This document shows positions 31,265 to 44,388 of a stretch of 64,000 bases of DNA, piece after piece; positions within the stretch are counted from its first letter, which is position 1; every line of letters begins with the position of its first letter. The stretch lies in the IMG/VR virus record IMGVR_UViG_3300043418_000226. One strand, 5' to 3'. Under the pieces are notes generated by a model. The model did not search any database. It worked only from the letters and a program-made list of their open reading frames with translations, and was not told the DNA's origin. The stretch comes from a virus (lineage: Duplodnaviria; Heunggongvirae; Uroviricota; Caudoviricetes). A program made the translations under genes and the position numbers.

Positions 31265-31934
31265 AACTTATGTCGGCACAATGCCAAAGAGAGAATACAA
31301 TAAAATAAAATCAATGACCAAAGACCAATTGATCGAACATTACAAAATAGAACGTGATGACTTTGAAATTGAAGAAGGTTATATAGGAATGGGTGTTTAC
31401 GATTTTGGTAAACCTTTATATGAGTTTGGTAAGTATACCGAATTCGAACCACCAAAAGGTTCACAAAAAACATTCTTCAAAAACAAAGAATTAAACAAGT
31501 ATTATACAAATGACCACGACTTTGCAATCGTTACACCTGAGTTTCTTGAGTACATTATTGACAGTTACAAGAAAAGAGTTGAGGACTATTACAATAAAAT
31601 GATGGTTCCGTTCTTTGGTGAAAAAGAAGATAGATACAGTAGAGATAAACCGACTGACTTTCTTAATTCAGTTAAGGTTGAATACAATTTCCCAAACAAC
31701 AAATATGTGTTTGACTTCTCAAAGATTACCCAAGATGAACAAAACGCTTTGTGGGATATTATTGACCATGTAAGAACTATGAGGTTCGAATGGGTACAGA
31801 CAAAACCTTACGATTTAACTAGAGGTGATGAAGTAACAACCAGTTGGAAGTATGAGTACATCATCTTTGAATTGGTTAGAATCTATAAGACGTTTGATTG
31901 GAAGAAAAACGTTATGGTTTATTATGGATATTAA
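31254..31934 (+). CDS. Conserved phage hypothetical protein
   Basis: MGYR N-terminus; SWKYEY..FEL..IYK.FDW. Confidence 0.65.
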   Translation: MGYRTYVGTMPKREYNKIKSMTKDQLIEHYKIERDDFEIEEGYIGMGVYDFGKPLYEFGKYTEFEPPKGSQKTFFKNKELNKYYTNDHDFAIVTPEFLEYIIDSYKKRVEDYYNKMMVPFFGEKEDRYSRDKPTDFLNSVKVEYNFPNNKYVFDFSKITQDEQNALWDIIDHVRTMRFEWVQTKPYDLTRGDEVTTSWKYEYIIFELVRIYKTFDWKKNVMVYYGY

Positions 31935-32341
31935 TGAAAACATTTAAATTTTTTTCTAACAATGAACCAATACTTGAATACGATGCCTTTGGGGGTCCTT
32001 TTCAAATACAACCAAGGACTTGGATAGGGTCGAGTGCAGGTGTCCCAAAATGGATTAACGGACCAACCGGAATGATATATTATATGGAGTTCGTTGGTGT
32101 TGTTGTTGATCCCGTAAATGATAATCAAATGCCTGAGATAAGTTCCCAACTTCAAAGTAAAATGATAACTGTTGCCACATACGGTCCACACAATTACCAA
32201 GAATTTTTAGATGCACATCGGAATCATCACATTTGGATTTATAGTGTTAACACTGAAACATCAGTATATAACGAACATAATATCAATGACTTACCAATCG
32301 GTGAACCTGTTATGATTCGAGCACATATCGAAACAGAATAA
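31934..32341 (+). CDS. FKF-tag family protein with gp23-like GPTG segment
   Basis: Start ATG 31934, MKTFKFFS; NGPTGMIYYMEF. Confidence 0.7.
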   Translation: MKTFKFFSNNEPILEYDAFGGPFQIQPRTWIGSSAGVPKWINGPTGMIYYMEFVGVVVDPVNDNQMPEISSQLQSKMITVATYGPHNYQEFLDAHRNHHIWIYSVNTETSVYNEHNINDLPIGEPVMIRAHIETE

Positions 32342-32398
32342 AAACTGTTAAATTATTAGGCAGGTGTGAATTTTATTAATACATTTGACAAATAATTT

Positions 32399-32698
32399 AT
32401 GAACATGAGTTTTAAGTTTCTTAATAATAAAAAAACACATCGAATGTTAGTGCCATTTAGTTCAACTCAAATGATGATTGAAATTGATACTGACATGGGT
32501 TATGAACAGTTTGTAAATTACATGAATGAAAATGTGATTTGTGAAAGATGGTCAAGTGACCCTGCGTTTGGTATATTCACATTAAGAAGAGTAATTCGTT
32601 TAAGGTTGATGTTTCATTTTGGTAATGTTAGAACCTACGGATTAATGATTGATGGTGTCTTAACGAGAATGTTCCGTGACGACGAAAGAGTTGAATAA
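32399..32698 (+). CDS. FKF-tag family protein
   Basis: MNMSFKFLNNKK; no Lys afterwards. Confidence 0.65.
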   Translation: MNMSFKFLNNKKTHRMLVPFSSTQMMIEIDTDMGYEQFVNYMNENVICERWSSDPAFGIFTLRRVIRLRLMFHFGNVRTYGLMIDGVLTRMFRDDERVE

Positions 32699-32822
32699 TT
32701 TTAAAATAGTAAAGATATGGTAACGAGTTTTGGAGACATATTCCTAATTGGAATGTTATCCGGGTTTTGTGTAGGGGTAACCCTTGTTGTGATTTTGTGG
32801 TCTAATTCTAAAAGTAAATAAG

Positions 32823-33155
32823 ATGGGATTATTAGGTGCCAGAGGTTGTATGTACTGTGAGGGTGACGTGTGTACTAAAGAATGTATTGAAGATATACAT
32901 TCTCCACTTCATGAGTTTACTCAAAAAAAATTAATGGGTGTACATAATCCAGTTGTTCGTGAACATATTTCCAATGGTATTCGTTATGGTTCCGAATGGG
33001 AAAGAAGTAGATTGTTCACCAAGGAAGATATGTTAAAGGCAGTTAAGTTTGGTGAACTATATCAAACAGAAGGCTCAAAGTCTTTATTTGAAAAAAGAGG
33101 AACAACTCCTTCAGAAGTATTAAACAAATGGTTGGATAGTTTTAAAAAGAAATAA
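32823..33155 (+). CDS. Hypothetical protein
   Basis: 110 aa; CMYC..C..C. Confidence 0.55.
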   Translation: MGLLGARGCMYCEGDVCTKECIEDIHSPLHEFTQKKLMGVHNPVVREHISNGIRYGSEWERSRLFTKEDMLKAVKFGELYQTEGSKSLFEKRGTTPSEVLNKWLDSFKKK

Positions 33156-33490
33156 TGAACATCAGACAATACAAGAAGAAGTTTGCAATCTGTAAAGATG
33201 ACAACGGTAAAACCATATACAAGGGTGATATTGTAAAGATATGGATGGCCATGGAAACCAATACAGGTCACGTATCAAGAGTCTACCACAATATGTTAGA
33301 TGGTGCATTTGTATTGGGTTCACCGGCACATGCATTTATGAATGATGGTAAACAAACACATCGACCTTTACGTGATTATTTAAATCAGAAACCAATACCC
33401 GTTCACGAATGGGGTGTTGACGAACCGACGTATCGAAAAGGATATTGTATTAAAGTTAGGTCGTTTAATAAACCAATTAAAGGAAAGTAA
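33155..33490 (+). CDS. Hypothetical protein with YopX-like motif
   Basis: KDDNGKTIYKGDIV. Confidence 0.5.
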   Translation: MNIRQYKKKFAICKDDNGKTIYKGDIVKIWMAMETNTGHVSRVYHNMLDGAFVLGSPAHAFMNDGKQTHRPLRDYLNQKPIPVHEWGVDEPTYRKGYCIKVRSFNKPIKGK

Positions 33491-33493
33491 GTT

Positions 33494-42409: not shown

Positions 42410-42410
42410 A

Positions 42411-42710
42411 ATGAAACAAGGAGATAAAGTTGTTTGTATAAGTGAAGATTTCCCACAATGGAAAACCACGGACGAAGATAAGACAAAAAATGGTACCCAA
42501 CCAAATAATCACCCAATGAAAGGTGAAGTTCTAACCGTGGATGAAGTTCTTGGTGAGTTTATCAGATTCGATAGATATGATAATGATTTTCATAACTGGT
42601 GGAAGAGTGATAGATTTAGAAAGGTGGACCTACAGGAACTAATGAATGGTGAAAAGAAGACTGCGGACTTATATCAGAAACTAATTGATGAATTGAATGA
42701 AAGACTTTAA
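42411..42710 (+). CDS. Hypothetical SH3-like protein
   Basis: Start ATG 42411, MKQGDKVVCI...RFRK. Confidence 0.55.
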   Translation: MKQGDKVVCISEDFPQWKTTDEDKTKNGTQPNNHPMKGEVLTVDEVLGEFIRFDRYDNDFHNWWKSDRFRKVDLQELMNGEKKTADLYQKLIDELNERL

Positions 42711-43128
42711 ATTTTTTCAGAAAGAGAAGAGACTGATGTTTTCCGGGTTAATTGAAAGTTTACGAACTGACAATGGTGCCATTGATTTAACAACAAGAGG
42801 GACCGTTCGGGACTATTATAGAAATCAAATTGAGGGTACTTTTTACCCAAATGAAAATAATGAAATTGACGATCAGGTTATTCGGATGGTGGATGAATAT
42901 TTTAATGATAATCAAGGTATAGCCATACAAACTGAATTCCTACGGATGGAGATAACAAGTCATGAGATTAATAACAATTATCTTTACGATTCATTTGTTG
43001 ATAATACTCACTTGATAAATGTCGATGTTCGAGTTAGAAACTCTCCCTACGGTCCAATCCAATATCTTCTCACTAAAAATGAGGGTGGATTCATTTACAT
43101 TACAGAAAAAAGAATAGAAAGCCGATGA
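42697..43128 (+). CDS. FKF-tag family protein
   Basis: MKDFKFFQKE. Confidence 0.7.
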   Translation: MKDFKFFQKEKRLMFSGLIESLRTDNGAIDLTTRGTVRDYYRNQIEGTFYPNENNEIDDQVIRMVDEYFNDNQGIAIQTEFLRMEITSHEINNNYLYDSFVDNTHLINVDVRVRNSPYGPIQYLLTKNEGGFIYITEKRIESR

Positions 43129-43433
43129 TAGATTTTAAATTTTTTCAGAAAGATATTGAATCTTTACCACATTTTCATCCGGATATGTTATTTAGATATC
43201 ATTATCTTATTGACCGAGTATACACGGACAGGTTTGAAAATGAGGTACATGATATTGATAATATGAACATATTTGATGACATATTTACCATGATTGAACG
43301 TGGTGAATTGGCTTCATTTAATTCTATAAGGGGATATATCGAACAAAGATACTATACCATAACCGGTATTTTCATTTCCATTACGGATGAAAAACACAAC
43401 CAATTAATGTACCAATCAACTTATTTAACATAA
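43125..43433 (+). CDS. FKF-tag family protein
   Basis: MIDFKFFQKD. Confidence 0.7.
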   Translation: MIDFKFFQKDIESLPHFHPDMLFRYHYLIDRVYTDRFENEVHDIDNMNIFDDIFTMIERGELASFNSIRGYIEQRYYTITGIFISITDEKHNQLMYQSTYLT

Positions 43434-43435
43434 GA

Positions 43436-43750
43436 ATGAAAGACTTTAAATTTTTCAGTAAAGATAAGGAAATTCCAATATATATTCGAAGATTACATGC
43501 GTTTAATTCTAAATTGGCTGAGTTGTATCATATGCGTACCAATTTCCCATATGATAGTAATGAGTTTGGAATAACGGTTTCCATTTGTGACAATGTAAAC
43601 CGAGCCATTAATTCGGGACATGCGACTCGATACCAAGAGATATCGTGGTTTTATCACGCCAAGTTCCTTAATGAATTCAGTGTAGATTACCAACCAACAA
43701 GAGAGATAGTTGATTTAATAATAAATCAGGTAGAGAATGAAATCGTTTAA
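43436..43750 (+). CDS. FKF-tag family protein
   Basis: MKDFKFFSKD. Confidence 0.7.
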   Translation: MKDFKFFSKDKEIPIYIRRLHAFNSKLAELYHMRTNFPYDSNEFGITVSICDNVNRAINSGHATRYQEISWFYHAKFLNEFSVDYQPTREIVDLIINQVENEIV

Positions 43751-43976
43751 GTTTTTACGGAGTTCAACAATTAGACGCGTAGACGTTCATGTCCATGGTT
43801 TACACATTGAAATACTGACGGATCTTCCAATGTATCAAATACGGACAATAATGTTTAATATACTTGACCCATTCCTATTCCAACCTTATCATATTATCAA
43901 TAAAAATAGGGTACAACATATGTTAAATGAGAGATTCAATGGTAACGCAAATATAGTAGGGGATGAAATCGTTTAA
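43737..43976 (+). CDS. FKF-tag family protein
   Basis: MKSFKFLRS. Confidence 0.7.
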   Translation: MKSFKFLRSSTIRRVDVHVHGLHIEILTDLPMYQIRTIMFNILDPFLFQPYHIINKNRVQHMLNERFNGNANIVGDEIV

Positions 43977-44388
43977 GTTTTTTCAGAAAGAGGCGGTATC
44001 AATTAGTTTACCCACAGCAATGAGGGTGGAAGCAAGAACCATTGCTGGTGAACTTATGGCAGTTGAACCGGTGAGTCCACCATCAACCCCTGATTTTTGT
44101 CTTAGGGTATATAATGATAAAATCTTTACCAAATATAGTGATTATTATAATTTTCCCTTAGATAGTGAAGAACATTCACGAATGGTGTCCATATATGAAA
44201 CCGCAAATGAATTCATTCATAACCGACATATTGTTAACTACGATGCATTAAGGAATTTTTACTACATAAATTACGAAGATTTCCATAATACACCTAACGT
44301 TCCTCACCATTTGATGGAATATGTCATAACGGATGATGTTCACGATAGGATGATTGAAAACACGGAACGTTCCTTTTTACCTTGGTAA
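43963..44388 (+). CDS. FKF-tag family protein with gp23-like segment
   Basis: MKSFKFFQKE; LPTAMRVEARTIAGELMAVEPVSPP. Confidence 0.7.
   Translation: MKSFKFFQKEAVSISLPTAMRVEARTIAGELMAVEPVSPPSTPDFCLRVYNDKIFTKYSDYYNFPLDSEEHSRMVSIYETANEFIHNRHIVNYDALRNFYYINYEDFHNTPNVPHHLMEYVITDDVHDRMIENTERSFLPW

Follow-up and report, generated by a model that had tools for sequence, protein, structure and literature searches.

Short tagged genes resembling pieces of the T4-type major capsid protein in a lineage of large phages

Why would a phage carry, as separate small genes, short stretches resembling its major capsid protein (MCP)? The question is raised by a 64,000-nucleotide (nt) stretch of DNA from IMG/VR virus record IMGVR_UViG_3300043418_000226, hereafter the window, in which approximately 18 small open reading frames (ORFs; 71-164 amino acids, plus strand, 28.7-46.6 kb) start with M-[KR]-x-F-K-F-[FL]. 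We refer to this seven-residue N-terminal opening, common to otherwise unrelated bodies, as the tag. An earlier, sequence-only reading had quoted strings from three of these ORFs, starting at 40376, 43963 and 31934, as resembling gp23, the MCP of phage T4, and had proposed that pieces of the capsid gene were captured into tagged mini-proteins, possibly as decoys or titrators of capsid-sensing immunity or as assembly modulators. We found all three strings in these ORFs, each of which lies on the plus strand, as do the other tagged window ORFs described below, and opens with the tag. At the level of sequence, our comparisons support the capture of gp23-type MCP pieces behind a shared tag, and phages of one lineage, with genomes of 316-336 kb and a T4-type head module, have retained the tagged design. 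Our paper searches turned up no description of capsid-fragment mini-genes.

MCP-like blocks in the tagged ORFs

The highest-ranking case is ORF 40376 (nt 40376-40678, 100 amino acids, tag MKDFKFL, no lysine after the tag), which we term C-type. Its residues 19-65 (nt 40430-40570) copy the C-terminal strand block of the gp23-type P domain, with the motif G.VYAPYVP..LTPTM ... M.R....IN..FFG, and are followed by a 35-residue tail ending RLMGGFR. A hidden Markov model (HMM) built from 12 gp23-type MCPs placed this ORF first among the 953 six-frame segments of the window (E 3.6e-4), and an HMM from two MCPs of the lineage described below, picked independently of ORF 40376, again ranked it first of 953 (E 2e-5 over 50 residues). 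Its YAPYVP..LTPTM string is nearly exact against the lineage MCPs, to which the ORF is 34-38% identical; pairwise BLASTP against MCPs gave 6e-8 to 7e-8, and the ORF reached E 9e-8 in a census of 3,746 segments that is described with the relatives. With tblastn, 50,697 phage records yielded only weak matches (E 0.2-3); in three unrelated phages (Flavobacterium phage immuto, Rhodothermus phage RM378 and Microcystis phage Mel-JY01), each match lies within the final ~50 codons of a gene annotated as a gp23-type capsid gene. Aligned with these capsid C-termini, ORF 40376 shares G.VYAPY[VI]P..[LMF]TP ... M.R ... P.F.G, and among its protein homologues the MCP-like block is the best-kept part. ORF 40376 thus contains a diverged copy of the gp23-type MCP C-terminal block. 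Comparison with the single available DNA homologue gave a ratio of nonsynonymous to synonymous substitution rates (dN/dS) of ~1.5, with only 5 synonymous changes.

The Gol-type mini-protein, ORF 43963 (nt 43963-44388, 141 amino acids, tag MKSFKFFQKE), carries at residues 14-49 (nt 44002-44109) a diverged copy of the MCP N-arm/first-strand block, approximately T4 gp23 96-133, that contains the Gol peptide and is followed by a C-terminal domain of ~90 amino acids. Taken alone, the ORF ranks second of the 953 window segments with gp23 HMMs (E 0.08-0.5), and tblastn against the phage records gave no capsid match. Orthologues are present in four relatives, where the block reads LP.VRRGAGRTIAQDLVPVQPLGPP and is closer still to the gp23 consensus; these score E 5e-6 to 8e-6 individually. 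The family profile aligns with the MCP profile at 93% probability in hhalign (E 2.4e-7), covering MCP profile columns 65-103, equivalent to T4 gp23 96-133, and a blind search of all PDB sequences with the same family profile led to T4 gp23 residues 96-133 (E 0.03). In this family, too, the MCP-like block is the best-kept part, and dN/dS among the orthologues is 0.21-0.26, indicating that Gol-type genes are under purifying selection. On this evidence, the block of ORF 43963 corresponds to the Gol region of gp23, whose position, like the T4 motifs, the sequence-only reading had given correctly, as judged against T6 gp23 and a review (PMC3014915).

ORF 31934 (nt 31934-32341, 135 amino acids), the PTG-type, came third among the 953 segments with the 12-MCP HMM (E 0.61). 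Its residues 36-53 (nt 32039-32092, GVPKWINGPTGMIYYMEF) resemble the MCP block GVQPM..PTG.IFYL.F over 13-21 residues, with an hhalign probability of 14-26% over 21 columns; the PTG-type gave no PDB match, and tblastn of ORF 31934 against the phage records gave no capsid match. Within the family, the MCP-like motif is the most conserved part, with the core W..P.G.I[FY]YM[ED], and in four relatives the orthologue lies directly upstream of the Gol-type gene. The resemblance of ORF 31934 to MCP is plausible but not proven. Two further tagged ORFs are candidates for a second and a third C-type, each with a weak resemblance. In ORF 39110 (nt 39110-39334, 74 amino acids), nt 39185-39253 (FIGVSPVMYEPISFDQVKFLLYR) compare with MCP PLQLTPTMYNPFNFAPVKGIMTR (E 1.8 in the window, 0.03 against 18 MCPs), and in ORF 43737 (nt 43737-43976, 79 amino acids), nt 43836-43961 (..MFNILDPFLFQP...NERFNG) compare with the MCP C-terminal block (E 0.088 and 0.005, respectively). 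The tag probably precedes an MCP block copy in ORF 31934 as well, and perhaps in these two ORFs.

An HMM from eight MCPs chosen regardless of these ORFs kept ORFs 40376 and 43963 at ranks 1 and 2. By hhalign, comparison of all 254 segments of at least 60 amino acids with the MCP alignment put ORFs 40376, 43963 and 31934 on top (38.4, 28.1 and 26.8; background maximum 24.7). The earlier proposal of gp23-type fragments within tagged proteins stands for ORF 40376 and for the 43963 family, both of which showed local similarity with MCPs of relatives standing in for that of the window phage; for ORF 31934 it goes no further than the hhalign probability given above. None of the three has the full-length gp23 fold (A, P and insertion domains; ~390-600 amino acids): they are 100-141 amino acids long, with 21-50 residues aligning to one block. 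In T6/T4 numbering, the N block spans residues 99-128 and the C block 446-485. We rejected a capsid gene that is split or interrupted by an intron, since the order of the pieces is not collinear, the C-terminal block is the counterpart of three of them, and every piece has a tag and a stop codon of its own.

Database-wide searches with these three ORFs gave nothing significant. Pfam hmmscan found no PF07068 match up to E 10, Pfam and PHROGs scans of the tagged ORFs yielded nothing useful, and a 'longer' word search and the ESM Atlas gave no matches. Against 1.84 billion representative proteins, the 40376 profile recovered only its own family and two repeat proteins (P0007 and P0008), which we rejected as tandem-repeat artefacts that sum many weak repeats. 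Such an outcome is expected because only 20-50 diverged residues are involved, and the case therefore rests on the targeted tests and on recurrence in relatives.

The tagged lineage and its capsid protein

The window is phage DNA of 33% G+C, with small genes in long same-strand runs, and has no near match among deposited phages. Its UvrD-type helicase is nearest to those of Bacteroides, Chryseobacterium and Flavobacterium phages (35-40% identity), a kinship that makes a host in the Bacteroidota likely. With a degenerate DNA pattern for the tag, we located relatives in IMG/VR that carry the tag family; these are phages of 316-336 kb and include G009 (335,630 bp, rated complete, 24 tagged proteins) and G010 (316 kb). 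Both encode a gp23-type MCP of 575-591 amino acids, with a gp21-type protease (Peptidase_S77, 72-79 bits) ~1.5 kb upstream of it. Even in more distant helicase relatives, the MCP is closely similar in its N- and C-terminal parts, which makes the lineage MCP a reasonable substitute for that of the window phage. The tag pattern is absent from helicase relatives G004-G006 (58% identity), in which an MCP is present, and from the 484-kb record LR756508.

The relatives add a fourth kind of mini-protein, the spine-type: tagged ORFs of 69-86 amino acids that copy the MCP spine-helix block (..L[RK]A.W.PEL..DL...HGIDAEAELT..MS.EI...) and score 23-70 bits against MCP (E 3.5e-6 to 3.6e-20, three of the four below 1e-13). 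These genes (G009-G012; L054:1495-1737, L055:1492-1704, L050:1462-1671 and L051:1477-1695) always lie in a sugar-transferase operon, in the order 385-390-amino-acid gene, second tagged gene (76-87 amino acids), spine-type gene, and then glycosyltransferase-like and epimerase-like genes. The first tagged ORF of the window is preceded by a family-2 glycosyltransferase gene (27870-28556).

Across a census of 3,746 distinct frames, drawn from the window, all of G009 and other loci, all eight matches of a clade-MCP model at E < 1 are tagged ORFs. BLASTP of the 24 tagged bodies of G009 against its 209 ORFs of at least 200 amino acids gave one strong match, the MCP (E 1.3e-15), the sole further match being at E 0.033. 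Because the MCP is the only strong donor in G009, we rejected a general capture of fragments from many large proteins. These data also bear on the possibility that the resemblances are due to chance or are dead recombination debris of a capsid gene, which would be in keeping with the non-significant database-wide searches, the individually weak scores of ORFs 31934, 39110 and 43737, and the dN/dS of ORF 40376. Against this, tagged ORFs consistently take the top ranks, orthologues at 24-48% identity retain both an intact frame and the motif, Gol-type dN/dS is ~0.2, and three of the four spine-type E-values are below 1e-13. We consider chance or debris very improbable as a general explanation; it is largely refuted for ORFs 40376 and 43963 and the spine-type, and stays an option for ORFs 31934, 39110 and 43737.

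The spine-type is ~50% identical to the MCP of its own genome and 47-54% identical to other clade MCPs, and the fragments overall are ~34-51% identical to the lineage MCP, with other clade MCPs about equally distant. These low, near-equal identities indicate that the captures are old. The idea that capsid pieces were captured thus survives as a structural reading and extends to the relatives, but not as a recent copy of the present capsid gene. The same near-equal distances, together with the copying of the best-conserved blocks in the MCP family, would also suit weapons against co-infecting related phages, in which dominant-negative pieces of the MCP interface poison the capsid assembly of a rival while the phage's own MCP is tolerant. 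However, the lineage MCP is nearly identical in the copied blocks across relatives, so that self-poisoning would be hard to avoid, and the papers searched described no precedent; such weapons seem to us improbable. Copies of less conserved regions would escape detection.

Host readers or the phage head

Of the roles considered, we tentatively favour, with less than even confidence, mimicry of MCP segments towards host readers over docking in head assembly. Each mini-protein would present one MCP segment without the rest of the fold, and could thereby mimic that segment towards a partner whose normal target is the segment on freshly synthesized capsid protein. The host partners that we rate most likely are capsid-sensing immune receptors or EF-Tu, in which case the mini-proteins would act as competitive blockers or as titrators; the accessory region that encodes them is apparently rich in counter-defence genes. 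We favour host partners because the arrays lie far from head genes, among nicotinamide adenine dinucleotide (NAD)-salvage, transfer RNA (tRNA)-repair and methylase genes, and because the gene content of the arrays varies between relatives. In G009, tagged arrays are found at 3.7-17 kb and 300-323 kb and the MCP at 125 kb. Two further reasons are that many immune receptors read the MCP, some with EF-Tu, and that EF-Tu is known to bind the Gol block. Within gp23, the Gol region (29 residues) is the most conserved part, and its binding site on EF-Tu lies in domains II-III (PMC3014915); the receptors Lit, CapRel, Avs7/Avs8 and Dsr1 read MCP, Avs7 using EF-Tu (PMC9712102, bioRxiv 10.64898/2026.01.04.697583). 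As known MCP readers, these receptors are candidate partners of an MCP mimic; in the papers searched, we found no phage-encoded MCP-fragment inhibitor of Lit, CapRel, Avs7/Avs8 or Dsr1. We also count the fast evolution of ORF 40376 in favour of a host-directed role.

The capsid block to which ORF 43963 and its orthologues align is that of the Gol peptide (T4/T6 gp23 ~96-133; PMC3014915), yet here the block lies in a separate gene product, with a tag and a ~90-amino-acid domain, and not in the capsid protein. EF-Tu binding and a link to a Lit-type protease may extend to ORF 43963 by analogy, and the host of the window phage, unlike that in the T4 system, is probably not an enterobacterium.

Several points weigh against a host-directed role. 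A copied trigger could activate a sensor instead of blocking it, and the dN/dS of ORF 40376 may reflect merely relaxed constraint. MCPs of relatives substitute for that of the window phage, AlphaFold2 models of the Gol-type and PTG-type families had a predicted local distance difference test score (pLDDT) of 37 and were left unused, and the T4 late-promoter motif TATAAATA was found upstream of neither head genes nor tagged genes. Finally, the MCP as only donor also fits a role in head assembly, and a T4-type prohead protease adjoins the lineage MCP.

It is this last point that leads to head-directed proteins, in which the tag would be an address like the T4 capsid-targeting sequence (CTS) and the MCP block would, through self-mimicry, dock or compete in the lattice or scaffold, making the mini-proteins assembly modulators or shell-bound cargo. 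This possibility is raised by the CTS-like form of the tag, the T4-type protease and the MCP as sole donor with a strong E-value in G009. Like the tag, the CTS of the T4 internal proteins IPI-III and Alt is a short N-terminal peptide shared by small proteins that are otherwise unrelated, and both occur in lineages that encode a gp21-type prohead protease. The CTS has 10 residues; targeting is carried by residues 4 and 7, processing by residues 8 and 10 (PMC9026906). The tag has aromatic residues at positions 4 and 7 and, in about half of its members, Glu or Asp at position 10, and the gp21-type protease upstream of the MCP is shown for the relatives G009 and G010. Were a Gol-type protein cut after Glu10, it would begin near the start of the mature MCP N-arm; in T4 head structures, residues 66-105 lie in the N-arm, which is disordered before expansion. 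The tag sequence (MKxFKFF) nevertheless differs from the CTS, its Q-K-E end is unlike the L/I-x-E cleavage motif of T4, and the tagged family has far more members. Moreover, tagged genes are distant from the head module, no head-module protein carries the tag, and some tagged proteins of relatives (L014:2460-2936, L015:12430-12903, L044:3440-4009 and L046:2098-2475) have a hydrophobic end (..LTIAVILTISKLLNAW) resembling a C-terminal membrane anchor. On balance, we judge a head-directed role somewhat unlikely. The known gp23 paralogue gp24 shares with the tagged proteins an origin by duplication of the MCP, but it is a full HK97-fold builder of the vertex, whereas these have 70-160 amino acids and keep one block of 27-60 residues.

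The MCP is the phage protein most often read by bacterial immunity, and its conserved blocks cannot easily mutate away. Selected mini-genes for those blocks would point either to an undescribed way of blunting capsid sensing or to an undescribed control of head assembly. Either reading, if true, would supply short, well-defined peptides as probes of EF-Tu/Gol binding, of the sensors Avs7/8, Dsr1, CapRel and Lit, and of T4-type shell assembly. A more ambitious version of host mimicry, which we think unlikely in full, would make the tagged family a collection of capsid-epitope antagonists, in which each segment (N-arm/Gol, spine helix or C-terminal strand) would block a different host reader, be it a receptor or EF-Tu-dependent sensing, and lysine-free bodies would escape a lysine-directed host reaction.

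The tag, lysine depletion and neighbouring genes

Lysine makes up 1.7% of residues behind the tag, compared with 8.5% in 70 other ORFs, and arginine 7.1% compared with 3.8%; the tagged proteins of the relatives show the same lysine depletion. In the copies, lysines conserved in MCP are replaced by arginine (AKK to LRR, LKA to LRA). The internal proteins of T4 are basic, whereas the tagged bodies are lysine-poor. The C-terminal end R-[IL]-x-G-G-x-R(A) is common to ORF 40376 (..IVDRLMGGFR, 40649-40675) and the spine-type of relatives (..TRRINGGMRA and similar). These features could be explained if the tagged proteins were substrates or carriers for a lysine-directed reaction, with the tag supplying the only lysines (K2, K5 and often K9), which would serve as one site for attachment or cleavage, and with MCP pieces as one kind of body among several. 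No modifying enzyme was found beside the arrays, where Pfam gave only the family-2 glycosyltransferase, and such a reaction leaves the MCP as only donor unexplained; we give it little credence. The shared tag and near-absence of lysine nonetheless form a second, unexplained layer, and may point to a step of sorting or modification that dozens of phage proteins share.

Within the tag, codons show synonymous AAA/AAG and TTT/TTC changes, and relatives have versions containing G or C, with the peptide unchanged. Because of the synonymous changes, we place selection on the tag at the protein level, and these, together with the G/C-containing versions, led us to reject the idea that the tag serves merely as an AT-rich module for translation. 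The tag ends with Q-K-E/D in approximately half of the members and with T-N-N, S-K-I and similar in the others. At six junctions (38629, 39110, 39321, 43737, 43963 and 46089), consecutive tagged genes overlap by exactly 14 nt, with the TAA stop of the upstream gene within the TTTAAA (Phe-Lys) of the next tag, and upstream proteins consequently end x-E-x-[IV].

The tagged span (28743-46630) comprises its lysine-poor ORFs on both sides of an array of tRNA-like RNAs. This is an ORF-free stretch of 2 kb with higher G+C (35353-37304), in which Rfam reports two tRNA matches (35764-35885 and 36332-36441), 110-122 nt long and containing large insertions; ARAGORN predicted no tRNA in this stretch. The C-terminal domain of the Gol-type family (alignment A6, columns 75-137) gave a weak PDB sequence match (E 0.016, 18 bits), possibly by chance, to the tRNA threonylcarbamoyladenosine dehydratase TcdA, which we take to be ThiF/E1-like. 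Upstream, at 10842-12921, 16858-18450 and 20620-21483, the window encodes a Thg1-like tRNA-His guanylyltransferase and an RNA ligase, a tRNA repair kit, as well as NAMPT-like and phosphoribosyl pyrophosphate (PRPP)-synthetase-like enzymes of NAD salvage. These tRNA-repair and NAD-salvage genes share a strand block with the tagged array and are candidate counter-defence genes.

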